DNA of 11,051 bases from a virus (taxonomy: Duplodnaviria > Heunggongvirae > Uroviricota > Caudoviricetes): positions 1 through 11,051 of the IMG/VR virus record IMGVR_UViG_2671180296_000007; one strand, 5' to 3'. A program made the translations under genes and the position numbers. The notes under the pieces are model-generated. The model was not told the origin of the DNA and searched no databases. It saw only the letters and a program-made list of their open reading frames with translations. This document shows, piece after piece, positions 1 through 11,051 of the stretch (the first letter of the stretch is position 1; every line of letters starts with the position of its first letter).

Positions 1-1242
1 ATGGCGAGAAAAACACCCCCATTAACCACAGTGCAGATCAAAGCAGCCAGACCAGCGCAAAAGGAGTACACCCTACAGGACGGCGGTGGGCTTTTTCTCC
101 TGGTAAAACCGTCCGGATCAAAACTCTGGCGATTTTCCTACTACCGACCATCGGACAAAAAAAGAATATTGCTGAGTTTTGGATCGCTTGAAGATGTTTC
201 CCTGGCTGATGCCAGAAAACGCCGTAGCGAGTACAGGACGTTAATCAGTGCCGGAACTGACCCGCAGGACCATGAGAAGAAAAAACGAGAGGCAGAGGCC
301 CGAAGACAAGGGAACACGTTCGAAAATGTGGCGGCGGCATGGTACCAGGTGAAAATCAGCCAGAATCTGGCCCCCAACACGATTAAAGACATCTGGCGTT
401 CGCTGGATAAATATGTATTCCCGTTCATCGGCAACACGCCAATAGATACCCTCACTGCCCGAAGGTTCGTTGAGGTGCTTACACCCATCAAGGAGCGCGG
501 CAACCTGGAAACACTCAAGCGGGTTTTACAGCGCGTTAATGAGGTAATGGATTACGCCGCCAACAGTGGGCTGATTGATGCCAATCCGGCTATGAATGTG
601 CGTAAGGCGTTCCCCTCCCCTGTAAAAAAACATATGCCAACAATCCGCCCCGAACAGTTGCCGGAGCTTATGCAGGCTTTATCCGTATCAGCAACAGAAC
701 GGCAGACCAGATTACTGATTGAATGGCAGCTACTGACTGTAACCCGTCCGGTTGAAGCATCGTCAGCACGCTGGGAAGAAATCGACATGGACGCGCAACA
801 ATGGACGATCCCCGCCGGACGCATGAAGATGCGGCGTGATCACGTTATCCCGCTTTGTAGTCAGGCTATGGCGGTACTGGAGGCCATGAAGCCAATCAGC
901 CACCACCGCGAGCACGTTTTCCCTAGCCTGAAAGACCCACGGCAGCCTATGAACAGCCAGACCGCCAACGCAGCATTGCGGCGAATGGGATTCGCTGGCG
1001 TGCTGGTGTCTCATGGATTACGCGCCATATTCAGCACAGCAGCGAACGAGGAAGGATTCGAGCCGGACGTAATCGAGGCCGCACTCGCACACGTGGACAC
1101 GAACGAGGTAAGGCGAGCATATAACCGAAGTAACTACCTGGAAAAGCGCGTGGTGCTTATGCGCTGGTGGGGGGAATTTGTAGAGGCCGCAGCAACCGGA
1201 GTGACCATAGCCAGTGGTAAAAGGGGTATCCGTGCCGTGTAA
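1..1242 (+). CDS. int: Tyrosine recombinase / phage integrase, P4-type
   Basis: Full ORF of 413 aa. The N-terminus (KEYTLQDGGGLFLLVKPSGSKLWRFSYY) is typical of the P4-integrase N-terminal domain, and the C-terminal half has the recombinase-like HGLRAIFST region and a tyrosine near the C-terminus (RRAYNRSNYLEKR). Recognised from family knowledge, not searched. Confidence 0.9.
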   Translation: MARKTPPLTTVQIKAARPAQKEYTLQDGGGLFLLVKPSGSKLWRFSYYRPSDKKRILLSFGSLEDVSLADARKRRSEYRTLISAGTDPQDHEKKKREAEARRQGNTFENVAAAWYQVKISQNLAPNTIKDIWRSLDKYVFPFIGNTPIDTLTARRFVEVLTPIKERGNLETLKRVLQRVNEVMDYAANSGLIDANPAMNVRKAFPSPVKKHMPTIRPEQLPELMQALSVSATERQTRLLIEWQLLTVTRPVEASSARWEEIDMDAQQWTIPAGRMKMRRDHVIPLCSQAMAVLEAMKPISHHREHVFPSLKDPRQPMNSQTANAALRRMGFAGVLVSHGLRAIFSTAANEEGFEPDVIEAALAHVDTNEVRRAYNRSNYLEKRVVLMRWWGEFVEAAATGVTIASGKRGIRAV

Positions 1243-1343
1243 CTGTACAAAAAACCAGTAAAAGCGATGCAAACCATGCTAAACCATCGTATAATCACCA
1301 TATACAGAGAGACCCGACTCTTGAAATTCAAGGAGTTATCCGA

Positions 1344-1586
1344 GTGTTTTTCAATGAAAAGGTATCCCCTGCCTATGGTGAAGGCCTTCAACTGGCCTTA
1401 ATGGCAAATCGTGAATTCTGGTCAACGTACGATCCGGAAGACAAATCAACTGCCCCCACAAAACACGAGGTAGTCAGTTTTTTGCGCTCGCGTGGCGCAT
1501 CGAAAAATCTGGCTGAAAGTATCGACAAGGTGCTGAGGCCCACCAGCCTTAAATGCGGTGGGCGACCTAAGAAGTGGAAACGGTAA
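1344..1586 (+). CDS. Hypothetical small protein (80 aa from GTG, or 61 aa from the ATG at 1401)
   Basis: ORF preceded by AGGAG (1331-1335) 8 nt before GTG 1344 and followed by a hairpin plus T-run. Basic C-terminal tail GGRPKKWKR. No family recognised. Confidence 0.35.
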   Translation: MFFNEKVSPAYGEGLQLALMANREFWSTYDPEDKSTAPTKHEVVSFLRSRGASKNLAESIDKVLRPTSLKCGGRPKKWKR

Positions 1587-1591
1587 TCACA

Positions 1592-1621
1592 ATAGCGGCC
1601 CCTTGCGGTCGCTATTTTTTT
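1592..1621 (+). terminator. Rho-independent terminator-like hairpin plus T-run
   Basis: Imperfect stem atagcggcc / ggtcgctat immediately followed by tttttttt, 6 nt after the stop of the 1344-1586 ORF. Confidence 0.4.
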
Positions 1622-1657
1622 GCAGAAAGAAAAGCGTAATCAATAAGATAAAAAACA

Positions 1658-1691
1658 GTGGGTACCGTTTTAAAACGGTGGGTACTGTTTT
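1658..1691. promoter_or_regulatory. Putative operator: perfect 16-bp palindrome within two direct 14-bp repeats
   Basis: ACCGTTTTAAAACGGT (1664-1679) is a perfect palindrome. It sits inside tandem copies GTGGGTACCGTTTT (1658-1671) and GTGGGTACTGTTTT (1678-1691), about 70 bp upstream of the alpA start. Confidence 0.4.
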
Positions 1692-1756
1692 TCCCGCCCT
1701 GCCCTGTTTTACCGTATTTATCACCGGAATACGCCGGATTAACGAGGTAAAACATA

Positions 1757-1963
1757 GTGGAAACAATCAGAAAAATTCTTACCCGTCAGGAAGTAAAAAA
1801 TATTCTGCGCATCAAGGCAGACAGTTCGCTACAGGACATGATCAACGCCGGAAAATTCCCGAAAGGCTTCAAAATCGGTCTGCGCCGTGTTGGCTGGTAT
1901 GAAGATGAAGTGCTGGCCTGGCTGAAAGAGCGCGAGGAAGAAGCGCGCGGAACGGCTGCGTAA
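1757..1963 (+). CDS. alpA: AlpA-family DNA-binding regulator (phage transcriptional regulator / excisionase-like)
   Basis: 68 aa with GTG start. Pattern LTRQEV..IL.I...S..DMINAGKFPKGFKIG.RRVGWYEDEVLAWL fits the AlpA signature. Position directly after int is the canonical P4/PICI arrangement. Confidence 0.8.
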   Translation: METIRKILTRQEVKNILRIKADSSLQDMINAGKFPKGFKIGLRRVGWYEDEVLAWLKEREEEARGTAA

Positions 1964-2110
1964 TGGTGTGAGGCGTAACGCGATGAACATAACAAAAAGC
2001 GCCCCGTTGCCGGAGCGCCCTTGCGAACAATTAACCTGCTGCGAAAAAAATGGATCAGTGCAGTGGAATTATATCAACCGTGTGACGAAGCGCCACAATT
2101 GCCGGATAAC

Positions 2111-2142
2111 AGGCAAAACAAAGGCCACCCGCTACGGTGGCC
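2111..2142 (-). terminator. Putative rho-independent terminator for the minus-strand small gene
   Basis: Stem ggccacc (2123-2129) / ggtggcc (2136-2142) with a 6-nt loop. On the minus strand it is followed by TTTGTTTTGCCT. Confidence 0.4.
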
Positions 2143-2245
2143 CCTCGACACAAGCTACACGTTATCCCCAACGCATGAGCATAGCCAACAATGCCACATT
2201 TGCGGCTGGTGGGCAAAGCGTAACCGGAAAAAAATTCCGGTGGAG

Positions 2246-2425
2246 CTACTCCTGCTCTTTGGCCTTGCGGCGCTGGCGGCGTTTGATCTCGCCGCGCATG
2301 GCTGCACTTATAAACTGCCCTGTACTTTCGCCTTCTTCTTTCACGTTTTCCATGCCTTCAATAATTTCATGGGCAATACGTGCAGTTACAGATTGTGATT
2401 TTGCATTCTTTGGACCTGTTGCCAT
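2246..2425 (-). CDS. Small basic-tailed protein (59 aa), putative transcriptional regulator of the divergent switch
   Basis: Start set at the internal ATG (2425) because a perfect AAGGAG lies 5 nt upstream on the minus strand. Sequence MATGPKNAKSQSVTARIAHEIIEG...KRRQRRKAKEQE. Divergent from the Icd-like operon with shared repeated operators. Function inferred from context only. Confidence 0.5.
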   Translation of the reverse strand: MATGPKNAKSQSVTARIAHEIIEGMENVKEEGESTGQFISAAMRGEIKRRQRRKAKEQE

Positions 2426-2445
2426 GTCTAACTCCTTATGTTTTT

Positions 2446-2540
2446 GGTGTAAGACAATATACACGAAAAAAAATTATTTTGAAGGGTTGACGTGTAAGAC
2501 ACTATTATTTTACATTGTGTCTTACACCTTGTTGATACAA
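2446..2540. promoter_or_regulatory. Divergent promoter/operator region with three copies of TGTAAGACAC
   Basis: Direct copies at 2447-2456 and 2492-2502; inverted copy at 2517-2527, giving a perfect 11-bp inverted repeat with 14-bp spacer. Candidate -35 TTGACG (2487-2492) and -10 TACATT (2511-2516) for the + operon. Candidate minus-strand -35 TTCAAA / -10 TATATT overlap the operator copy at 2447-2456. Confidence 0.45.
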
Positions 2541-2624
2541 GGTGCAGAAACGACGAAACCCGGCAGTGCGCTAACACTAACCGGGCTTCTAACCACCAAC
2601 GATAACGAGAGTATCGAGGTAGCT

Positions 2625-3239
2625 ATGTTAAATCATACCATACACCCGCAAGGGCGGGACTCGCACAACCTGAATAAATATATCTGGCGTTTTATCGCCC
2701 TGAGCACAGCACAACCGCGCGTGATTACCATTGAGGCCACCAGCGAACAGGAAGCACGCCAGAAAAACCAGTTGATCGCCATTGCCAGCCAGGGCTATGA
2801 TTTATCCGCACCAGCAAAATCTGGTGCCGGGATTGGCGTCCTGGTATTTAACGAAGCGCACAACACGCGCCCTGCGTGTTTTTTTGTGCCGGATAGTCAC
2901 ACCTTATCAATGGTGGGCTGTATGGGGGCGGAGCAATCCGCGCCGGGTTCTTCGTTAACCGGTTACGCCAACCCTGTACAGTCTACCGCCAGCGAAATTG
3001 GCGTTTCCTGCGGTGGGTTTATTAAACCTAACGAAGAGGCTGCCAACATGGCTACTATCCCTGCCCTCGTACATTCTCAAACTGCCTTTATCTGGCGCTT
3101 TATCATCTTTGGCGCGTCAGAATCCCAAATCATCCACGTAACCGCCTGGACGGAACGCGAAGCGCGTAGTCGTTGCCCGTCCGGTTGTGTTGCTGTATTC
3201 GCCGCCCGTATTCGTCAGGAGGTGCGCCATGTGCAATAA
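2625..3239 (+). CDS. Icd-like (host cell division inhibitor-like) protein with two copies of the Icd motif
   Basis: The track ORF 1968-3239 is trimmed to ATG 2625 (GAGG 6 nt upstream), because the upstream part overlaps the minus-strand gene and the promoter region. Two copies of the motif: YIWRFIALSTAQPRVITIEATSEQEAR (N-terminal) and FIWRFIIFGASESQIIHVTAWTEREAR (C-terminal). Family assignment is from memory of the Icd-like signature. Confidence 0.5.
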   Translation: MLNHTIHPQGRDSHNLNKYIWRFIALSTAQPRVITIEATSEQEARQKNQLIAIASQGYDLSAPAKSGAGIGVLVFNEAHNTRPACFFVPDSHTLSMVGCMGAEQSAPGSSLTGYANPVQSTASEIGVSCGGFIKPNEEAANMATIPALVHSQTAFIWRFIIFGASESQIIHVTAWTEREARSRCPSGCVAVFAARIRQEVRHVQ

Positions 3240-3699
3240 CACCCGTCCGGACGCAGCCGCCGAAGCTATCAGAACGCTGATGCACGCGCTGATTAATATT
3301 TCTGTTATCGCAGACATGGCGCATAAACACGCCACCAGCGAAACAGAATATGCCGGGGCTTTCGTTCCTCACTCACTGGCTGTTATGCAATTTAGTGCTG
3401 ATATGGCACTGAATGAGGCTAAAGCCATCCTGATTGCTGATTGTGAAAATGGGGGGGTTATGCGTGATGATCGTTTTAATGCCCTGAAACAGGAATTTTC
3501 CGGCGTATCTGATGATGCGAGTGATGCGCTTTCGTCAATATCCGAACTGATAAGAGCGGCCTTTTTCTTACTTGGCACGAAAGAAAATAAAACAACGGGG
3601 TTTGATGTACTAAATATCACCGCTGATTATGCGGAATATGTGGCAGAAGTCGATTTAAGAAAAATCCCGAATTGTCGCGGCATTAATAACGCTTCTTGA
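3229..3699 (+). CDS. Hypothetical protein (156 aa)
   Basis: ATG 3229 preceded by AGGAGG (3217-3222) with a 6-nt spacer; overlaps the end of the upstream gene by 11 nt, suggesting one operon. Acidic, alanine-rich. No family recognised. Confidence 0.6.
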   Translation: MCNNTRPDAAAEAIRTLMHALINISVIADMAHKHATSETEYAGAFVPHSLAVMQFSADMALNEAKAILIADCENGGVMRDDRFNALKQEFSGVSDDASDALSSISELIRAAFFLLGTKENKTTGFDVLNITADYAEYVAEVDLRKIPNCRGINNAS

Positions 3700-3777
3700 G
3701 CCTGTAATAAATGAATCGCAGGAAATAGAAACATTGCACGACAGATATAAAGAACAGCACACCGGAGAATAAAAATA

Positions 3778-4077
3778 ATGAAACTTAAATATTCTGGCTT
3801 AACTGCCAGTGGCAACACTCACCCTAAATTTACGCGCGGTGATATTTACCGCGACCAGTACGGCGGCACGGTAATGATTAAGGGCGTGGCGGGACGGTGC
3901 GTAACTTACCGCCGTGAAGGTTACGAATATGATTGCGTGATGCCTGTTTATCAGTTCCGGCGTGATTTTTCTCTGGTACAGGCAGCGCCCCGCAGTAAAC
4001 CAACCAGCAGGGAGAAAGCACGCGCCAATATTCAGAAGATGAAAACCATGATTAAAGGATTCAGGGGTAAAAAATGA
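3778..4077 (+). CDS. Hypothetical small protein (99 aa), translationally coupled to the primase
   Basis: GGAG 3762-3765 upstream of ATG 3778. The stop overlaps the primase start in an ATGA motif (4074-4077). Confidence 0.6.
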   Translation: MKLKYSGLTASGNTHPKFTRGDIYRDQYGGTVMIKGVAGRCVTYRREGYEYDCVMPVYQFRRDFSLVQAAPRSKPTSREKARANIQKMKTMIKGFRGKK

Positions 4078-5828
4078 AACTGGCACCGAACGTAAAACAG
4101 CAGTCACGCGGCATAAAACACAAAGAAACAGAAGTCATTATTTTTGCGGGTAGTGATGCCTGGTCACACGCGAAACAATGGCAGGAACATGATGCGCGTA
4201 TGGCCGGAGATAATGAGCCTCCTGTGTGGCTTGGGGAGCAGCAGCTATCCGAACTGGATAATCTGCAAATTGTGCCGGAAGGCCGAAAATCAGCACGCAT
4301 ATACAGGGCCGGATATCTTGCGCCAGTAATGATAAAGGCGATTGGCCAGAAGCTGGCGGCGGCAGGCGTACAGGATGCAAATTTTTACCCTGATGGTATG
4401 CACGGTCAGAAGGTGGAGAACTGGAGCGAATATCTGGCCCGTGAGCGCCAGAATCTTTCTGATGGTCTGGTCATTGAGCTTCCGGTAATGCAAAAGGCGC
4501 AACTTTCGCAGATGGCGGACAGTGAGCGCGCACAGATGCTTGCTGGTCGATTTGATGGCGTTTGTGTGCATCCGGAAAGTGAAATCGTTCACGTATGGCG
4601 CGGCGGGGTATGGTGTCCGGTCAGCACAATGGAACTTAGCCGCGAAATGGTGGCGATCTATTCAGAGCACAGGGCCACTTTCAGCAAGCGCGTAATCAAT
4701 AACGCCGTGGAAGCGTTAAAAGTTATTGCCGAACCAATGGGCGAGCCGTCCGGCGATTTGTTGCCGTTCGCCAATGGTGCGCTTGACCTGAAAACGGGGG
4801 AATTTTCCCCGCACACGCCGGAGAACTGGATCACCACGCACAACGGCATTGAGTACACGCCACCAGCACCTGGGGAGAACATCCGCGATAACGCGCCAAA
4901 CTTTCATAAATGGCTTGAGCACGCAGCCGGAAAAGACCCGCGCAAGATGATGCGTATATGTGCCGCGCTGTACATGATTATGGCGAACCGGTACGACTGG
5001 CAGATGTTTATTGAGGCCACCGGAGACGGCGGGAGCGGTAAAAGTACATTCACGCACATAGCCAGCCTTCTGGCAGGGAAACAGAACACGGTGAGCGCGG
5101 AGATGACATCGCTTGATGATGCTGGTGGACGTGCGCAGGTTGTCGGGAGTCGTCTTATCGTCCTGGCTGACCAGCCGAAATATACAGGCGAAGGAACGGG
5201 CATCAAGAAAATCACGGGCGGCGACCCCGTGGAAATAAACCCGAAATATGAGAAGCGTTTTACGGCGGTAATCAGGGCGGTGGTGCTGGCTACCAACAAT
5301 AACCCGATGATATTCACCGAACGGGCCGGAGGTGTGTCACGTCGTCGCGTAATTTTCCGTTTCGACAATATCGTCAGTGAGGCCGAAAAAGACAGGGAGC
5401 TACCGGAAAAGATTGCGGCTGAAATCCCTGTCATTATCCGCCGATTGCTGGCGAACTTTACCGACCCTGAGAAGGCACGGGCTTTACTACTGGAACAGCG
5501 TGACGGTGATGAAGCACTGGCAATAAAGCAACAGACGGATCCGGTTATTGAGTTTTGCCAGTTCCTGAATTTTCTGGAGGAAGCGCGCGGCCTGATGATG
5601 GGTGGCGGTGGTGATTCAGTGAAGTACACGACCAGGAACAGCCTTTATCGCGTCTATCTGGCGTTTATGGCGTACGCAGGCAGGAGCAAACCGCTAAACG
5701 TAAATGACTTTGGCAAGGCTATGAAGCCAGCCGCGAAAGTTTACGGACATGAATATATTACGCGGAAAGTTAAGGGAGTAACGCAGACTAACGCAATAAC
5801 AACAGACGAGTGCGACGCGTTTTTATAA
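4074..5828 (+). CDS. DNA primase/helicase, P4-alpha C-terminal type (D5_N-like domain plus SF3 P-loop NTPase)
   Basis: 584 aa. Walker A GDGGSGKST (about 5018-5046), Walker B-like LIVLADQP, downstream NNNP motif. Overall resemblance to phage/plasmid primase P4-family C-terminal domain proteins (PICI pri-rep type). Confidence 0.85.
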   Translation: MKLAPNVKQQSRGIKHKETEVIIFAGSDAWSHAKQWQEHDARMAGDNEPPVWLGEQQLSELDNLQIVPEGRKSARIYRAGYLAPVMIKAIGQKLAAAGVQDANFYPDGMHGQKVENWSEYLARERQNLSDGLVIELPVMQKAQLSQMADSERAQMLAGRFDGVCVHPESEIVHVWRGGVWCPVSTMELSREMVAIYSEHRATFSKRVINNAVEALKVIAEPMGEPSGDLLPFANGALDLKTGEFSPHTPENWITTHNGIEYTPPAPGENIRDNAPNFHKWLEHAAGKDPRKMMRICAALYMIMANRYDWQMFIEATGDGGSGKSTFTHIASLLAGKQNTVSAEMTSLDDAGGRAQVVGSRLIVLADQPKYTGEGTGIKKITGGDPVEINPKYEKRFTAVIRAVVLATNNNPMIFTERAGGVSRRRVIFRFDNIVSEAEKDRELPEKIAAEIPVIIRRLLANFTDPEKARALLLEQRDGDEALAIKQQTDPVIEFCQFLNFLEEARGLMMGGGGDSVKYTTRNSLYRVYLAFMAYAGRSKPLNVNDFGKAMKPAAKVYGHEYITRKVKGVTQTNAITTDECDAFL

Positions 5829-5839
5829 TTTTTTGTAAT

Positions 5840-6070
5840 TGCTGTCTACCCTGTCTACCTGAGTAAAGAAAAATACATTTAATTCAGTGCATTAAGTTAT
5901 GTAGATAGCCTTTTTTTACTATCTACCCACTATCTACCCTCTCTACCTGATTTTACCTGAATCAGACAGGGAGGTAGACACGGGGTAGATAGTGGATAAA
6001 AGCACTCTACCCCGCTGAAAGCCGCGCCATTACTGGCATGAGGGCCACTAAGGTAGATAAGGTAGACAAG
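5840..6070. repeat. Iteron array / putative origin of replication
   Basis: Hexamer core TCTACC on + at 5845, 5854, 5922, 5933, 5942 and 6006. Its complement GGTAGA at 5973, 5984, 6052 and 6061. Arms form an imperfect inverted repeat (ccactatctacc 5927-5938 versus ggtagatagtgg 5984-5995). AT-rich stretch 5872-5920 and a DnaA-box-like TTATCCACT (complement of 5991-5999). Located immediately downstream of the primase gene. Confidence 0.6.
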
Positions 6071-6116
6071 GGGAGGCACAACTCAAAACTTTTTAAACGA
6101 GGGGGTAAAAATAAAT

Positions 6117-6395
6117 ATGCACACTTCAGGGAAATTTAATAAATCACTCAAAAAACGCAGAGACAGAACAGAACCGAAATATCGCGCGTTAGACATGACA
6201 GAGCACGCTTTAAAGGTGGCAATCAGAACGATAGACCGCCACGCGGGGGAAGGATACGCGAAAGCACATCCCGACCTGATAAGCGCATTCATGACCACGA
6301 CGGCGGCAAATTTTGCCACGCTGACAGAGCGGGAGATTGCCGAAGCGGAACAGGTAACAACAATCAACGTTAAAACCGGAGAGGTGGAATCATGA
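6117..6395 (+). CDS. Hypothetical protein (92 aa)
   Basis: GAGGGGG upstream of ATG 6117. Stop overlaps the ssb start (ATGA at 6392-6395). No family recognised. Confidence 0.55.
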   Translation: MHTSGKFNKSLKKRRDRTEPKYRALDMTEHALKVAIRTIDRHAGEGYAKAHPDLISAFMTTTAANFATLTEREIAEAEQVTTINVKTGEVES

Positions 6396-6814
6396 CAGCA
6401 CAGATAGCCGCTTACGGGCGGCTGGTGGACGACCCGCAGGTAAAACAGACCAGCAAGGGCACACCGATGACGCTGGCGCGTATGGCGGTCCCCCTTCCGT
6501 GCAGCCAGGCAGATGACGGAACGGCGACGATGTGGTTATCCGTCCTGGCATTTGGCAGACAGGCCGAAGCACTGGAAAGGCACCGCAAGGGTGAACTCCT
6601 GAGCGTGGCGGGTAACATGCAGATCAGCCAGTGGACTGGGCAGAACGGAGAAACGCGGCAGGGCTGGCAGGTTATCGCAGACAGTGTAATCAGTGCGCGA
6701 ACGGCGCGACTGGGCGGCAAAAAAGGTCAACAGGGCCAGGCTACTGACGCGCTGAACAGGGCAAAACAACAGGCGGGGAATGATGATCCGTACGGGGATA
6801 ACATACCGTTTTAA
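6392..6814 (+). CDS. ssb: Single-stranded DNA-binding protein (SSB-like OB fold)
   Basis: 140 aa. Pattern GRLVDDPQVKQT..G...LARMAV...W..VLAFGRQAE......KGELLSVAG.....W....G..R follows the SSB OB-fold signature. Gly/Gln-rich linker and C-terminal DDPYGDNIPF, resembling the acidic ...DDDIPF tip of E. coli SSB. Confidence 0.8.
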   Translation: MTAQIAAYGRLVDDPQVKQTSKGTPMTLARMAVPLPCSQADDGTATMWLSVLAFGRQAEALERHRKGELLSVAGNMQISQWTGQNGETRQGWQVIADSVISARTARLGGKKGQQGQATDALNRAKQQAGNDDPYGDNIPF

Positions 6815-6829
6815 GCGACGAGTGACAGA

Positions 6830-6852
6830 AGCCGGAGCAATCCGGCTTTTTT
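6830..6852 (+). terminator. Rho-independent terminator
   Basis: Stem agccgga / tccggct with a GCAA loop followed by TTTTTT, 16 nt after the ssb stop. Confidence 0.6.
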
Positions 6853-6900
6853 ACGGGTCCTCCTAGCGGGGTGGGCCTGAACACGGGGCGGGAGGCGCGG
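6853..6900 (+). other. Degenerate cos-like sequence (cosQ-like ACGGGTCCT plus mutated cosN)
   Basis: acgggtcctcctagcggggtgggcctgaacacggggcgggaggcgcgg parallels the intact cos at 9294-9343 (acgggtcctttccggcatatggacctgttacggggcggcgacctcgcgcg). The 12-nt cohesive-end core is altered (GGGCGGGAGGCG versus GGGCGGCGACCT). Confidence 0.4.
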
Positions 6901-7032
6901 AAAAAAGCGCATTTTTGTGATTTTATCGTCATCATCATCATGAGCGTAATTTATTGTTTTTAATTGTTTTGATGCAAAAAAGATGATGTTTGTGGTTAAT
7001 TTTTGTTCGACATCTTTGCAGGCAGATAAAAA

Positions 7033-7069
7033 AGCCCGATAAGGTCAGAGGTGGCTTATCGGGCTTTTG
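7033..7069. terminator. Bidirectional terminator-like hairpin
   Basis: Stem agcccgataag (7033-7043) / cttatcgggct (7055-7065) flanked by an A-run upstream and a T-run downstream. Confidence 0.5.
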
Positions 7070-7100
7070 CATATGAGGCTTTTTGGTGCACTGACACACA

Positions 7101-7198
7101 TGATCGGGATCATCATTTCATAATTTGCAACACAACTCAACATCATTGCATAAAATGCAATCATGATTATAATCATAACTGGATGAACATCCAGTTAT
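7101..7198 (+). promoter_or_regulatory. Near-consensus sigma70-like promoter with nested palindromic operators upstream of the capsid operon
   Basis: -35 TTGCAT (7146-7151), 16-bp spacer, -10 TATAAT (7168-7173). Palindromes: TGATCggGATCA (7101-7112), TTGCATaaaATGCAA (7146-7160), ATGATTATAATCAT (7163-7176), and a perfect 11-2-11 ATAACTGGATGaaCATCCAGTTAT (7175-7198) over the predicted transcription start. Confidence 0.5.
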
Positions 7199-7229
7199 GA
7201 TTTTTTAAGTCAAAGAGGAATTTCTTACT

Positions 7230-7436
7230 ATGGCTGAAGAGAAAAAAGGCGGTGTTTCGGTGTACATAAGCCCCGAAATCGTGGAGGTGCTCAAGCAGCG
7301 CCACAAAAAAAACTATGAGGCTGGCGTGGCGGCTGGACTGGATCCGCTGATGACGCCGGAGCCGTCGATAGGTTCACTTGTACGCTCTTATTTACTTGCG
7401 GCGCTTGGGATGCATAAAAATTATGGGGGTGAATAA
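7230..7436 (+). CDS. Hypothetical small protein (68 aa), first gene of the capsid operon
   Basis: AAGAGGAA (7213-7220) upstream of ATG 7230. Stop overlaps the capsid gene start (TAATG). No family recognised. Confidence 0.55.
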   Translation: MAEEKKGGVSVYISPEIVEVLKQRHKKNYEAGVAAGLDPLMTPEPSIGSLVRSYLLAALGMHKNYGGE

Positions 7437-8491
7437 TGGCAGGCAAAGCAACGGCACTTAACACTAACCAGCTTTTCGCGTACCTGAATCGCGGGGATAT
7501 TGCGGAATTTAAATTCAGTCCGCTGTTTACCACGCTGTTTTTCCCGAACGTGGCGACATTCAACACCCAAAGCATCATGCTGGACACCCTGGACATTGAA
7601 GAGGTTACGATGTCGGCGTTTTGTTCGCCTATGGTGGGTAGTCAGGTCCAGCGCGATAAAGGGTACGAAACCAGCACGATTAAACCTGGATACATGAAGC
7701 CGAAGCACGAAATCGATCCAACGAAAACCATCATGCGTATGGCTGGAGAAGATCCGGCACAGCTTAATGACCCAACCTATCGCCGTATGCGCCTGATTAC
7801 TGGCAACATGCGCCGCCAGATAAACGCGATTAAAGCGCGCGTGGAATGGCTGGCGGTGAATGCGGTAACGACCGGAAAAAACATCATTGAGGGCGAAGGC
7901 ATAGAACGCTATGAAATCGACTGGAAGATACCGGAAAAAAACATCATAGAGCAGGCCAAAGGCCGTAAATGGTCCGAGCAGGACAAAGAAACCCACGATC
8001 CAATCTATGATATCGAGCTTTATGCGGATCAAGCAGGTTGCCCCTCCAACGTCATGATCATGGGCGCTGAGGTATGGCGAACGTTACGCAGCTTTAAAAA
8101 ATTCCGCGAACTGTACGATCTTTCCCGTGGTTCAGAGTCCTCCGCAGAGCTGGCCTGTAAAAACCTGGGCGAAGTGGTGAGCTTTAAAGGATATCTGGGC
8201 GATATTGCCCTTATCGTCTATTCCGGCAAATACACTGACAGCGACGGCACCGAAAAATATTTCCTTGAGCCTGATTTGCTGGTCCTGGGCAACACCAACA
8301 ATAAAGGGCTGGTGGCCTATGGTGCGATTATGGATCAGGAAGCGGTCAGAACGGGCGCAACGCAAAACATGTTTTACCCGAAAAACTGGATTGAGGACGG
8401 CGATCCGGCGATTGAGTACGTGCAGACGCACAGCGCACCGCAGCCGGTTCCGGCAGATATTCGCAAATTTGTTACCGTCAAAATTGGTTAA
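7436..8491 (+). CDS. Major capsid protein, lambda gpE family
   Basis: 351 aa. Matches to lambda E recalled from memory: FKFSPLFTTLFF (lambda FKFDPLFLRLFF), PGYMKPKHEI (PGYVKPKHEV), DPTYRRMR (DPAYRRRR), SFKGYLGDIALIVYSGKY (SYKGMYGDVAIVVYSGQY), YPKNW, and full-length collinearity. GGGGG RBS 6 nt upstream. Confidence 0.9.
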   Translation: MAGKATALNTNQLFAYLNRGDIAEFKFSPLFTTLFFPNVATFNTQSIMLDTLDIEEVTMSAFCSPMVGSQVQRDKGYETSTIKPGYMKPKHEIDPTKTIMRMAGEDPAQLNDPTYRRMRLITGNMRRQINAIKARVEWLAVNAVTTGKNIIEGEGIERYEIDWKIPEKNIIEQAKGRKWSEQDKETHDPIYDIELYADQAGCPSNVMIMGAEVWRTLRSFKKFRELYDLSRGSESSAELACKNLGEVVSFKGYLGDIALIVYSGKYTDSDGTEKYFLEPDLLVLGNTNNKGLVAYGAIMDQEAVRTGATQNMFYPKNWIEDGDPAIEYVQTHSAPQPVPADIRKFVTVKIG

Positions 8492-8502
8492 CGGGGGATT
8501 CT

Positions 8503-8838
8503 ATGGACACTCCATACATTGAGTTATTTGCAGGCAGTCAGCAGGTTGCCACGACGCTGGTACATTTTGCCGCTGATGCTGGCGTTATTCAGGAATTTAC
8601 CCCGCTGATGCTGGCGGACAATGGCGAATTTAAGCCGTGGGATGGTCAGGAATCTGGCAAGGCTGTTTATCTGACGGCGTATCCCGTGGACACGTCAACG
8701 CAGAAATCAGCACAGTGTTACAAGACGGGGATATTCAATATTGCCGCCGTTAACTGGCCTGAGAGCGTCGACACCGACGCGAAAAAATGTGCCGCCTTTG
8801 CGGGTTCTGGTGTATCTGTTCAGCCGCTGGCGCGATAA
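8503..8838 (+). CDS. Head decoration protein, lambda gpD family
   Basis: 111 aa. TPLMLADNGEFKPWDG and C-terminal YKTGIFNIAAVNWPESVDTDAKKCAAFAGSGVSV parallel lambda D (TPLMLDTSSRKLVAWDG ... [35 protein letters not shown]). Confidence 0.8.
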   Translation: MDTPYIELFAGSQQVATTLVHFAADAGVIQEFTPLMLADNGEFKPWDGQESGKAVYLTAYPVDTSTQKSAQCYKTGIFNIAAVNWPESVDTDAKKCAAFAGSGVSVQPLAR

Positions 8839-8851
8839 GCAGGGGGGAACG

Positions 8852-9265
8852 ATGGCAACGAATGAAAGTATCATGGCGCTACCGCTGGCGAGTAAATTTA
8901 AAGCTGAAGCGCGGGCAATGGCTGACAGATGTCTATCAACCTACGAAGCTATATATCAACTTAACAAACTGGAAGAACAGGACAAGCCGCGCGCTGATGC
9001 GATTATGTCGCTTCATGAATCTGACGACTATCAGCCGCTGTTACGTGCAATGGCAAACGTGCCTTGTATTGATGTTGATACGGCTAAAAACATCCTGAAC
9101 ATGACCATAGAACAGGAACGCCAGAAGGTTGCACCAGAGCTTACCGCAGCCTTTGAAAACTTTATGGACATGCACAGCCCACAAGCCGTATCAGCTGGCA
9201 TGGCATACGATGGCAGAAACCCGGGCGATGACGGCGACATTGATCGCATACTGAAAACCATCTGA
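8852..9265 (+). CDS. Hypothetical acidic protein (137 aa), last gene before cos
   Basis: The track ORF 8741-9265 is trimmed to ATG 8852, preceded by AGGGGGG. It is followed by a terminator and then cos. No family recognised. Confidence 0.55.
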   Translation: MATNESIMALPLASKFKAEARAMADRCLSTYEAIYQLNKLEEQDKPRADAIMSLHESDDYQPLLRAMANVPCIDVDTAKNILNMTIEQERQKVAPELTAAFENFMDMHSPQAVSAGMAYDGRNPGDDGDIDRILKTI

Positions 9266-9271
9266 GACAAG

Positions 9272-9293
9272 GCCGGAGAAATCCGGCTTTTTT
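9272..9293 (+). terminator. Rho-independent terminator
   Basis: Stem gccgga / tccggc with a GAAA loop followed by TTTTTT. Nearly identical to the terminator at 6830-6852. Confidence 0.6.
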
Positions 9294-9500
9294 GCGGGTC
9301 CTTTCCGGCATATGGACCTGTTACGGGGCGGCGACCTCGCGCGTTTTCACTATTTATGAAAATTTTTCGGGATCCATGTCCGGTTTCTCTGCAAGTTAAC
9401 CATATGAAAAATATAAAAACATGCTTTCCATGAACCGGACATGCGCAAAAAAACAGACACTAAAACCGGACATCGTACCCGTTAACCGGAAGTGTGCAAA
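9294..9500 (+). other. Lambda-type cos site, forward orientation (cosQ-like, cosN, candidate cosB)
   Basis: cosQ-like GGGTCCTTTCCGG (9296-9308). GTTACG then the 12-nt cohesive-end sequence GGGCGGCGACCT (9326-9337). Downstream TTTTCACTATTTATGAAAATTTTTCGG closely matches the lambda left end (CGCGGGTTTTCGCTATTTATGAAAATTTTCCGG). Candidate terminase-binding repeats AACCGGACAT at 9433, 9464 and 9484, with an inverted copy at 9374-9384. Confidence 0.8.
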
Positions 9501-9699
9501 AATCACACGCATTGCTGCGCGTGATTAACAATTTATCGGCTTTACTGTTCTGTATAGGCTGGGTGGCGTCATGCCGTAGCCGTTCTCCGTGCCAGCATGG
9601 AATAATCCGTAGTTACAGAGCGGTAAAGTTAAAAATCACTTTCTGTTACGCCATCAAATACGCGATACAACAACCATGTGTTTTTACAAAACCATTTGA

Positions 9700-9898
9700 T
9701 ATCATTGAATTTTTTCACATTAATGACATCAAAATACATCGTAAGGTTGTTGTATTTATTTTATTTTATTTTTACCTTACTTATCAATTAGATATACCAA
9801 ACAATTAAACAACAACCACCCCATCAAAAAATCTCATAAATAGCGAAAAACCGCGAGGTCGCCGCCCCGTAACGGGCCATAATTCCTGGAAGGACCCG
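9700..9898 (-). other. Second lambda-type cos site, inverted orientation (cosQ-like, cosN, different candidate cosB)
   Basis: On the minus strand: cgggtccttccagg ... gttacgGGGCGGCGACCTcgcggtttttcgctatttatga. The cosN core is the complement of 9856-9873. The inward-facing flank carries GGTTGTTGT-type repeats (minus-strand reading), not AACCGGACAT. Confidence 0.7.
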
Positions 9899-9931
9899 AC
9901 GACACCAGACTATCAGAACGATGGGGGCACA

Positions 9932-10213
9932 ATGACAGAAGCCGAACTACTGCGATTAATCCGTCGCGTTGCCGGAATCAGCCAGCAGGCTGACGAACAG
10001 GCCACGCAGCCGGACAGCGTGACCGCAGAAAATTATGTTCGTGTGGTTGCTGAGGTGATGCACCGTGATGGTATCCAGCTTAATGATGCGGATATGCGCG
10101 ACATACGGATCCGCGTTCTTGAAATGCTGGCCTACCGTCGCCGGATACAGACGTACAGGGAAAAAGCCAAAATAACGTACCAGTGGAAGAAGCCGGAGCG
10201 GTTACGGCGGTAA
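9932..10213 (+). CDS. Hypothetical protein (93 aa)
   Basis: GGGGG 5 nt upstream of ATG 9932. First ORF downstream of the cos region. No family recognised. Confidence 0.55.
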   Translation: MTEAELLRLIRRVAGISQQADEQATQPDSVTAENYVRVVAEVMHRDGIQLNDADMRDIRIRVLEMLAYRRRIQTYREKAKITYQWKKPERLRR

Positions 10214-10233
10214 CTTGCTGAAGTTAAAGCATA

Positions 10234-10332
10234 ATGCAAATTTGCACTCTGGCCTAACCCGTTAATATTTCAGCAAAGTGCAAATTTGCGTTCTGTAGCT
10301 GGTGGCTGGCAGAATGTAAATTTACATTCTGG
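10234..10332. repeat. Three tandem about 19-bp repeats, each containing a 12-bp palindrome
   Basis: aTGCAAATTTGCActctgg (10234-10252), gTGCAAATTTGCgttctg (10279-10296), aTGTAAATTTACAttctgg (10314-10332). They lie in a convergent intergenic region between the stops of the flanking genes. Confidence 0.6.
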
Positions 10333-10336
10333 TGAT

Positions 10337-10636
10337 TTAATCATCTGATTTACCCAGCCCGTACCGGATTACCGTACAGTGAGCGCCATCGCTACCGATA
10401 CGCACATCAAAGCGGGGTTCGCGCACTTTCACGCGGTACAGGATCCCATCATTTACCATAGCGTTTAACGTTCGTCGGGTTGCCTCTATGTGATATCGCT
10501 GATATTCGGAACCATAGAGCAGCACTGTCACACCACGAACATCAAAAGGCGGATCTCCGGCCTCCACCCGCACCCAATCGCGATATTCAGGTTTGTAAAG
10601 TTCAAGAATCTGTTTTTTGTGCCTGGTCATTCTCAT
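10337..10636 (-). CDS. Hypothetical protein (99 aa)
   Basis: The track ORF is trimmed to ATG 10636 (MRMTRHKK...), which has AAGGAA 7 nt upstream on the minus strand. The longer N-terminal extension is hydrophobic and low-complexity and lacks an RBS. No family recognised. Confidence 0.5.
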   Translation of the reverse strand: MRMTRHKKQILELYKPEYRDWVRVEAGDPPFDVRGVTVLLYGSEYQRYHIEATRRTLNAMVNDGILYRVKVREPRFDVRIGSDGAHCTVIRYGLGKSDD

Positions 10637-10742
10637 GTGTGATTCCTTATTGTGGGACAGTACTGTCATACAATAAGCTATGAGGGAAATTATCAAAAGA
10701 ACGGAAACCAACCATTCAGATTTAACAGGTATCAATGGGATT

Positions 10743-11051
10743 ATGCTTATGGTGCATGATGACAAAGCGGAAGAACTGGAAGCGAAAGGTTTATGGCGAC
10801 GGGCGGCTAATCGCTGGGGTGAGTTACTGAAACAGGCGGCAAGTGATGAAGCGCGTCAGTATGTAACGGAACGACGAACGGCATGTATCCGGAAGGCAAC
10901 CATAACCCGGGAACCGGAAAGAGACCTGATTTGTGCCATAAGAACCGCCGCCACAAAAACACTAACGGACATGGGGATCGACCTGAAAAAAGAAGATCCA
11001 CTGCGGGGCATTCAGCACGGACATACAAAGCGGGATAAACGCAGGAAGTAA
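10743..11051 (+). CDS. PerC-family transcriptional regulator-like protein
   Basis: N-terminal AEELEAKGLWRRAANRWGELL recalls the conserved PerC/Pch-family motif, from memory and not searched. Start is uncertain (10680, 10743 or 10749); 10743 is chosen to leave room for a divergent promoter. The perfect palindrome GACAGTACTGTC (10656-10667) lies in the intergenic region. Confidence 0.45.
   Translation: MLMVHDDKAEELEAKGLWRRAANRWGELLKQAASDEARQYVTERRTACIRKATITREPERDLICAIRTAATKTLTDMGIDLKKEDPLRGIQHGHTKRDKRRK

Follow-up and report, generated by a model that had tools for sequence, protein, structure and literature searches.

The 11,051-nt stretch of DNA analysed here (the window; positions 1 to 11,051 of IMG/VR record IMGVR_UViG_2671180296_000007) is a phage satellite of the phage-inducible chromosomal island (PICI) type from Escherichia coli, integrated at tRNA-Pro. 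Its right end, positions 10337-11051, carries two divergent open reading frames (ORFs) separated by ~112 bp: a 99-aa ORF on the minus strand and, on the plus strand, an ORF for a homologue of the PerC/Pch family of regulators. An initial annotation of the window had proposed that the two ORFs, together with a palindrome between them (GACAGTACTGTC), form a small regulatory cassette at the right end of a satellite island, and that the PerC-like protein could couple carriage of the island to activation of the enterocyte effacement locus (LEE). The divergent ORF and the palindrome are both present, the island is the satellite at tRNA-Pro, and in close relatives, where it lies between yejM and yejO, PerC is the final gene before yejO. 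Coordinates of the features are collected in Table 1.

The results of profile searches establish that the plus-strand ORF encodes a PerC-family protein. The ORF spans 10680-11051 (123 aa), encodes the motif GLWRRAANRW at 10788-10817, and matches Pfam PF06069 with 81 bits (gathering cutoff 22.6; E = 7.7e-23; profile positions 1-82 of 90), which confirms the family assignment first made from the motif; it also matches PHROG 994 with E = 2.5e-25, the PHROG families being annotated 'transcriptional activator'. The start at 10680 has to be revised. The PF06069 match begins at residue 24 of the 123-aa ORF, and in an eleven-locus alignment the ATG at 10680 is ATA in most related loci, the ATG at M22 is ACG in one locus, and the ATG at 10749 (M24) is the sole start present throughout. 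Because this is the lone conserved ATG, yields the RefSeq product and gives the MVHD/MLHD beginning shared with PchE and PchA, we place the start at 10749, for a protein of 100 aa, not 123 aa. It had been envisaged that another start might yield a protein lacking GLWRRAANRW; the start moves, and the motif is unaffected, as residues 14-23 of the 100-aa protein. The segment between the two starts is probably a noncoding 5' leader of perC, the nucleotide sequence of which is nevertheless kept along with perC.

The 100-aa protein has the size (~90-105 aa) and the N-terminal core (A..LE..G..RRA..RW) of the family and the family's type of carrier (prophage, satellite or virulence plasmid), and in an alignment with PchA, PchD and PchE residues A7, L10, E11, G14, R17, R18, A19, R22 and W23 are invariant. 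It falls outside the ANR family (NCBIfam NF033650; 18.4 bits vs. a cutoff of 32; E = 1.4e-3), and a PDB sequence search gave no match. Identity is highest to PchE (51% over 78 aa), followed by the satellite protein EcCIMP1_025 (40%), PchA (35%) and PchD (35%), and is below 47% to plasmid PerC proteins. We conclude that membership in the PerC/Pch family is secure and that the window allele, judged by sequence, represents a separate, PchE-like subgroup. PICI-borne PerC genes of E. coli have been published before (PMC6092414, Fillol-Salom et al.; PMC11773190).

The 99-aa ORF encodes a protein that had no match in Pfam (even at E <= 10), NCBIfam, PHROGs or PADLOC, and a PDB sequence search with the profile of its family gave no match at E <= 10. 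A word-indexed search recovered 17 relatives, all close ones from E. coli, and an exhaustive HMMER search of 1.84 billion representatives recovered 60. Homologues in other genera are 29-52% identical, have intact ORFs and keep the conserved motif: the relatives share an N-terminal MR[ML]T.RKK.IL, then G.PPFDV.G, and a strongly conserved E[ST]TRRTL..MV.DGLLE.V. AlphaFold prediction on an alignment of 25 diverse sequences was confident (a shallow 12-sequence alignment had given a predicted local distance difference test score of 51, which was unusable) and places a three-helix bundle before a long beta-hairpin wing, superposable on solved winged-helix domains; structural matches include the BlaI/MecI-like Rv1846c, members of the MarR, ArsR/SmtB, Fur and IclR families, and Z-alpha and TFE domains. 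By sequence, the protein belongs to none of the named families considered (MarR, ArsR, BlaI, PadR, GntR and others). We conclude that the 99-aa protein is, by its predicted structure, a winged helix-turn-helix protein of a previously undescribed family. The Shine-Dalgarno AAGGA of its gene is kept in nearly all homologous loci.

The core palindrome noted initially occurs once in the window, at 10656-10667, and is the centre of a larger, 32-bp imperfect palindrome, CTTATTGT-GG-GACAGT-ACTGTC-AT-ACAATAAG, in which 28 of 32 positions are symmetric; its 16 outer-arm bases with their spacing likewise occur once in the window, vs. 0.07 expected by chance. The palindrome abuts the translation signals of the winged-helix gene, ending 3 nt into AAGGA on that gene's coding strand. 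To define its distribution we collected nine E. coli contexts, 17 loci from other genera (Buttiauxella, Mixta, Atlantibacter, Pluralibacter, Enterobacter, Kluyvera, Erwinia, Shimwellia, Serratia, Lonsdalea, Tatumella and Hafnia), a 34%-identical metagenomic relative, and the satellite EcCIMP1. In all collected loci, thus in 12 genera besides E. coli, the palindrome occupies the same place 5' of the winged-helix gene, and sequence similarity between loci ends at its distal edge, beyond which the loci are unrelated. Across 20 distinct sequences, 90.7% of pair cells are symmetric, vs. 28-52% in controls with slid partner columns; the eight outer pairs are essentially invariant, three inner pairs have changed on both sides, and a 2x2 asymmetry (AT vs. 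CC) is conserved. Because it is conserved across these 20 sequences, the palindrome is not a chance feature. Moreover, it accompanies the winged-helix gene where perC is not adjacent (the second copy in EC12, SCU-171, and the other genera), and for this reason we assign it as a cis element of the winged-helix gene and not of perC. The idea of a small regulatory cassette thus stands in that the 99-aa gene encodes a predicted winged-helix protein and the palindrome is a conserved cis element, and needs correcting in that the palindrome belongs to one of the two genes only.

Candidate promoter elements overlap the palindrome. Two -10-like hexamers lie back to back within the perC-proximal arm: TACAAT, the only such hexamer facing perC, and TATGAC, facing the winged-helix gene, which is mostly TATGAT in relatives and the alignment columns of which are conserved as T-A-[T/G]-G-A-[T/C]. 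The pairing with perC recurs in E. coli. Among 5426 complete E. coli genomes, 49 have the winged-helix gene and 56 the window perC allele together with its leader (coverage reaches >=80% in 50 of the 56), and the intergenic distance is 111-120 bp in all window-type loci. Two further, diverged pairs retain the head-to-head layout: one consists of a 123-aa winged-helix homologue and an 82%-identical perC, with palindrome core GAGACA-TCTCTC, and the other has a 74%-identical perC and core GAGGAA-CTCATC. In all three diverged E. coli allele pairs the putative operator also covers the likely perC promoter.

We propose that the winged-helix protein is an autoregulated repressor with a palindromic operator and that, in the E. 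coli layout, it also represses perC, a reading to which we give a probability of roughly 0.6. We infer both the DNA binding and the sign of the regulation. According to this proposal, the protein, dimeric or of a higher oligomeric state, would bind 10646-10677, which lies immediately 5' of the ribosome-binding site of the winged-helix gene, and would repress its own transcription; occupancy of the operator would keep perC low too, because the palindrome covers the only perC-facing -10-like element. Self-repression is most likely, repression of perC probable. Loss of operator binding, upon some inducing signal, would release both the winged-helix gene and perC. By analogy with PchA, the 100-aa PerC would most likely act on H-NS-containing nucleoprotein complexes and not as a classical sequence-specific activator; Pch (PchA) relieves H-NS silencing at LEE1 (PMC4764244).

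Several observations weigh against this proposal. A consensus promoter scan of 9800-11051 found no complete sigma-70 site, for which reason the promoter positions are hand-read candidates only, and no conserved -35 element was found beside the -10-like hexamers. The top Foldseek matches have the same fold, but with E > 1e-3 against PDB they place the protein at superfamily level only. Most relatives have a C-terminal tail of ~20 aa (LPG...V.RD..G.D..I.GE) that the window allele lacks. With ~24 bp between their centres, the outer arms are spaced widely for a simple dimer. Relatives with different palindrome cores have almost the same recognition-helix motif, and therefore the invariant outer arms may be the contacts. 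Three further points bear on the pairing with perC: none of the 17 other-genus loci has perC beside the winged-helix gene; the pchA, pchD and pchE loci have no winged-helix partner; and the nearest full-length relative of the island has an intact perC but a frameshifted winged-helix gene, from which it follows that the pairing is dispensable.

Two of these last points, the missing perC in the other genera and the frameshift, also speak for the most serious alternative, namely that the two genes are mere neighbours, the winged-helix protein regulating itself or serving the satellite life cycle (helper-phage interaction, or recombination near attR, for example) and perC being an accessory gene with expression of its own, inserted beyond it. 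In the 17 other-genus loci and in EcCIMP1 the winged-helix gene and palindrome do without an adjacent perC, satellite perC genes are also found after ssb (pchE in Sakai Sp7, for example), and conservation of the 71-bp leader (10678-10748) goes with perC, not with the winged-helix gene. Against chance adjacency stand the head-to-head layout kept in three diverged allele pairs, the near-perfect co-occurrence of the two genes in complete E. coli genomes, and the location of the lone perC-facing -10-like hexamer inside the palindrome. We regard independence of the two genes as unlikely on balance, while granting it appreciable weight.

It is considerably less probable that the palindrome works as RNA, as a hairpin in the 5' untranslated region of the winged-helix mRNA whose 3' arm pairs with the start of the Shine-Dalgarno sequence and limits translation, with no operator involved. 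The minus-strand RNA from 10685 to 10625 does fold the palindrome as a hairpin (-14 kcal/mol; z = -2.3), the 3' arm overlaps the AAG of AAGGA, and the two-sided changes keep the pairing. However, a hairpin would require a promoter upstream of the palindrome, where the loci are unrelated in sequence; the 8-nt outer arms are invariant in sequence, beyond pairing, for which a hairpin has no need; the conserved 2x2 mismatch and the 2-nt centre are poor hairpin features; and the encoded protein has a predicted DNA-binding fold.

Similarly improbable, in our assessment, is the coupling suggested by the initial annotation, that PerC activates ler/LEE1, so that attaching-effacing E. coli carrying the satellite would express virulence genes more strongly. 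The O145:H28 serotype is LEE-positive, and O145:H28 genomes of Shiga toxin-producing E. coli hold identical copies; the window protein is in the PerC family; and an RgdR homologue with an intact RGD motif is encoded on the same island. In a passage citing Porter 2005, PMC6092414 reports some PICI-borne PerC homologues as LEE activators. But the LEE activator PchA is merely 35% identical to the window protein. The closest relative, PchE, has little LEE effect, repressing curli and adhesion and raising flagellar expression (PMC6265319, PMC7369912), and the satellite homologue EcCIMP1_025 silences LEE1 (PMC11773190, 2025). Because the closer relatives do not activate LEE and PchA is the more distant, LEE activation is not predicted for the window allele. 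Chickens, pigs, wild birds, bats and seawater have also yielded isolates with the cassette, which argues for a LEE-independent function. That the 99-aa ORF is no gene and the palindrome a chance or terminator-like feature is effectively refuted: the ORF is short and without a match in any family library, but it has intact homologues in other genera (29-52% identity) with the conserved motif, a confident fold prediction and a correctly spaced Shine-Dalgarno sequence, and the palindrome lies 5' of it, not 3'.

The repressor proposal can be extended to satellites at large, with much less confidence. In the islands with readable boundaries (that of the window, those of its relatives, and EcCIMP1), the inward-pointing winged-helix gene is located at the satellite end or adjacent to it, and it recurs beside genes of satellite type in at least 13 genera. 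A speculative possibility, to which we give a low probability, is that the winged-helix protein and its palindrome are a conserved terminal regulator of PICI-type satellites of the Enterobacterales, EcCIMP1 included, and possibly the repressor or sensor that Gram-negative PICIs have so far lacked. Accessory or interference genes would then be held off until a helper-phage product, an antirepressor for example, displaces the winged-helix protein; alternatively, the protein might act in trans on look-alike operators preceding a homologue-ant operon in some temperate phages. PerC would then be freed specifically during helper activity, to counter H-NS silencing of satellite or helper DNA.

Three further observations concern homologues of the 99-aa protein. 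The gene for the only phage homologue (Klebsiella phage vB_KpnP_ZX1) lies directly upstream of an antirepressor (ANT) gene, as do the genes for two metagenomic relatives, and ZX1 also has a promoter-like site overlapped by a look-alike inverted repeat. By analogy, this suggests that the winged-helix module may descend from, or interact with, a phage immunity-type module. One distant homologue is fused to a T5orf172/GIY-YIG-like domain. Two other identities were considered and rejected: the 99-aa ORF is not RgdR, which also has 99 aa and is the DUF4222 gene at 3778-4077, and a defence-system role found no PADLOC match.

The perC half of the cassette is thus known biology in a new allele. The other half represents a new family of small winged-helix proteins, whose operator-like site is well supported; the arrangement as a whole is mechanistically conventional. 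Satellite PerC homologues are already tied to the regulation of virulence, adhesion and motility, and their alleles differ, some with opposite effects. Status as a PchE-like subgroup with a probable dedicated repressor guides experiments and warns against annotating the window protein as a LEE activator. To our knowledge, control of Gram-negative phage satellites has so far been explained through AlpA only, and a winged-helix family with an almost invariant 32-bp operator-like site is a cheaply testable candidate for a regulatory input into them.

Table 1. Positions of the features discussed, in the window unless another sequence is named.
Feature	Coordinates	Strand	Remarks
Winged helix-turn-helix protein gene (predicted fold), 99 aa	10337..10636	-	Family unannotated; RefSeq relatives named hypothetical protein
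Shine-Dalgarno AAGGA of winged-helix gene	10644..10648	-	7 nt before ATG; 3-nt overlap with palindrome
Putative operator, 32-bp imperfect palindrome	10646..10677		28/32 positions symmetric
TATGAC, -10-like hexamer facing winged-helix gene	10665..10670	-	Candidate; hand-read
TACAAT, -10-like hexamer facing perC	10669..10674	+	Candidate; hand-read; inside perC-proximal arm
Upstream part of 123-aa ORF (probable perC leader)	10680..10748	+	Start codons not conserved; Pfam match from residue 24
perC-family gene, 100 aa	10749..11051	+	Stop codon included; last satellite gene; RefSeq WP_001360810.1
phrog_1561 gene, 93 aa	9932..10213	+	Ends YQWKKP; PHROG match E = 8e-55
Direct repeat copies	2733-2768 and 13579-13614 of near-identical relative's locus		Resemble integrase arm sites
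EcCIMP1 winged-helix homologue (E. coli MP1), 119 aa	8037-8396 of retrieved locus		Terminal gene; 'hypothetical protein' WP_032286879.1
pchE in Sakai Sp7	21773-22045 of retrieved locus		Directly after ssb
Antirepressor-linked homologues	4001-5098 (phage ZX1 locus), 4001-5141 (second retrieved locus)		Early region, after RecA-dependent nuclease gene

The assignment of the window to the Gram-negative PICI type, elements of ~10-15 kb that have an att site of their own, rests on int, AlpA, DUF4222, primase, single-stranded DNA-binding protein (SSB), capsid protein E and decoration protein D, present in the expected order. The complete order is P4-like integrase, AlpA, isrK and C4 small RNAs, DUF4222, P4-type primase, SSB, lambda-type major capsid protein E, decoration protein D, a 136-aa gene, a 93-aa gene, and the winged-helix/perC cassette; no tail or lysis genes were found across the 11-kb window, and no convincing gene was found in 9265-9930, between the 136-aa and 93-aa genes. 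A relative of the island in Nissle 1917 lacks all sequence from 10222 onward, and the cassette is on this account a variable right-end module. In a near-identical relative, one copy of the direct repeat TTTTAGTTATACGTTTrGTTATACG lies upstream of int and a second ~450 bp past the PerC stop codon. The two copies are probably arm sites for the integrase, one at each end of the island, in which case the island reaches past the end of the window.

Satellite relatives conserve the 93-aa YQWKKP gene in the same place, as the convergent neighbour of the winged-helix gene. In several other-genus loci, the opposite strand downstream of the winged-helix gene encodes 61-aa relatives ending in YQWKKP, and a pRiA4b-ORF3-like gene often intervenes. 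Between the convergent stop codons of the 93-aa and winged-helix genes, the window has three 22-bp palindromes, CAGAnTGYAAATTTRCAnTCTG (10230-10251, 10274-10295 and 10310-10331), which number 0 to 3 in related loci; other loci have different hairpins there, with AAATTT or AATTTT centres, and GTAGCTGG tandem repeats. The region 10230-10331 looks like a variable terminator or hairpin-repeat region. We considered the three TGCAAATTTGCA palindromes as further operators and rejected this, as they vary in number and sequence and lie 3' of both convergent genes.

Elsewhere in the window, Rfam models score above gathering for the Hfq-binding small RNA isrK (80 bits; 2808-2884, plus strand) and the C4 antisense RNA (73 bits; 2906-2993, plus strand), in a region where Icd-like genes are annotated in relatives. 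The 99-aa DUF4222 protein encoded at 3778-4077 (plus strand), just upstream of the primase gene, is a homologue of RgdR, with the RGD motif intact at residues 20-22 (KFTRGDIY). RgdR, which is ECs1581 of Sakai Sp7/O-island 51, is reported to activate LEE1 and to repress motility, and its RGD motif is functionally important (PMC3378721). With this homologue and the PerC homologue, the island carries two small regulators from LEE-linked families. At the position of the window's gene-poor 9265-9930, the Nissle 1917 and SCU-171 relatives carry terS, the small terminase subunit gene, and MFDS1022581 and GB089 have a 69-aa hypothetical gene only; terS appears to have been lost from the window island. 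There are at least two locations for satellite perC genes, one immediately after ssb (Sp7 pchE, and also in Shimwellia) and one at the right end, and the E. coli satellite JNEC-KY176 has three perC paralogues with a ProQ/FinO-family gene (1367-3116 of the retrieved locus). An AT-rich segment without credible ORFs, 6815-7229, separates ssb from a 68-aa gene, which is followed by the capsid gene. In Sakai Sp7 this place is taken by pchE; in SCU-171 the same pair of 68-aa and capsid genes has a frameshifted perC just upstream. The segment could be the replication origin known from E. coli PICIs (PMC6092414), or a former perC site that has decayed.

Among characterized PerC homologues, the closest to the window protein is PchE (ECs_1588 of E. 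coli O157:H7 Sakai Sp7/O-island 51, a group 3 PerC homologue), with which it has the N-terminus MVHD..AEELEAKG..RRAA.RWGE in common and which is likewise carried on a satellite with int, RgdR/DUF4222, primase and ssb. The pchE gene differs in lying directly after ssb, co-directional with the island operons, without a divergent winged-helix partner or palindrome, whereas the window perC is a terminal gene encoding a longer, basic C-terminus; the curli repression and flagellar activation are phenotypes reported for PchE. EcCIMP1 resembles the window in two respects: EcCIMP1_025 is a satellite-borne PerC-family protein that has, like the window protein, weak ANR-like similarity, and the satellite has at its terminal end a 51%-identical winged-helix homologue with the same palindrome, WP_032286879.1, to which no reference turned up when the main text of the EcCIMP1 paper was searched by terms. 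Unlike in the window, its perC-like and winged-helix genes are ~1.1 kb apart and convergent, with two genes between them, and the LEE1 silencing by EcCIMP1_025 was in Citrobacter rodentium (PMC11773190). PchA/B/C and PerC of enteropathogenic E. coli are in the same Pfam family, with an invariant core L-E-x-x-G-x-x-R-R-A-x-x-R-W, and are likewise small, horizontally acquired regulators. The pchA gene, unlike the window perC, is carried as a moron by lambdoid prophage Sp4, in the prophage's late region, and LEE activation is documented for PchA/B/C and PerC (PMC4764244), not for the window subgroup.

For the winged-helix half, the comparisons are with repressors. The P22 immI-type arrangement, with a small repressor gene immediately upstream of ant, is resembled, as an analogy only, by the ZX1 homologue and the two metagenomic ones. 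Arc and Mnt are ribbon-helix-helix proteins. The window differs from P22 immI in having a predicted winged-helix protein and no ant gene after the winged-helix gene. From MarR, the window protein differs in being far smaller, at 99 aa, and in having no recognisable ligand-binding or dimerisation domain, and from the MarR, BlaI and ArsR families generally in its lack of sequence-level membership and in a 32-bp palindrome with outer arms ~24 bp apart. It resembles the autoregulated repressors of the MarR, BlaI/MecI and ArsR types in its predicted winged-helix fold with a long beta-hairpin wing and, as with those repressors, in a palindrome that overlaps its gene's own translation signals and candidate transcription signals together with those of a divergent gene.

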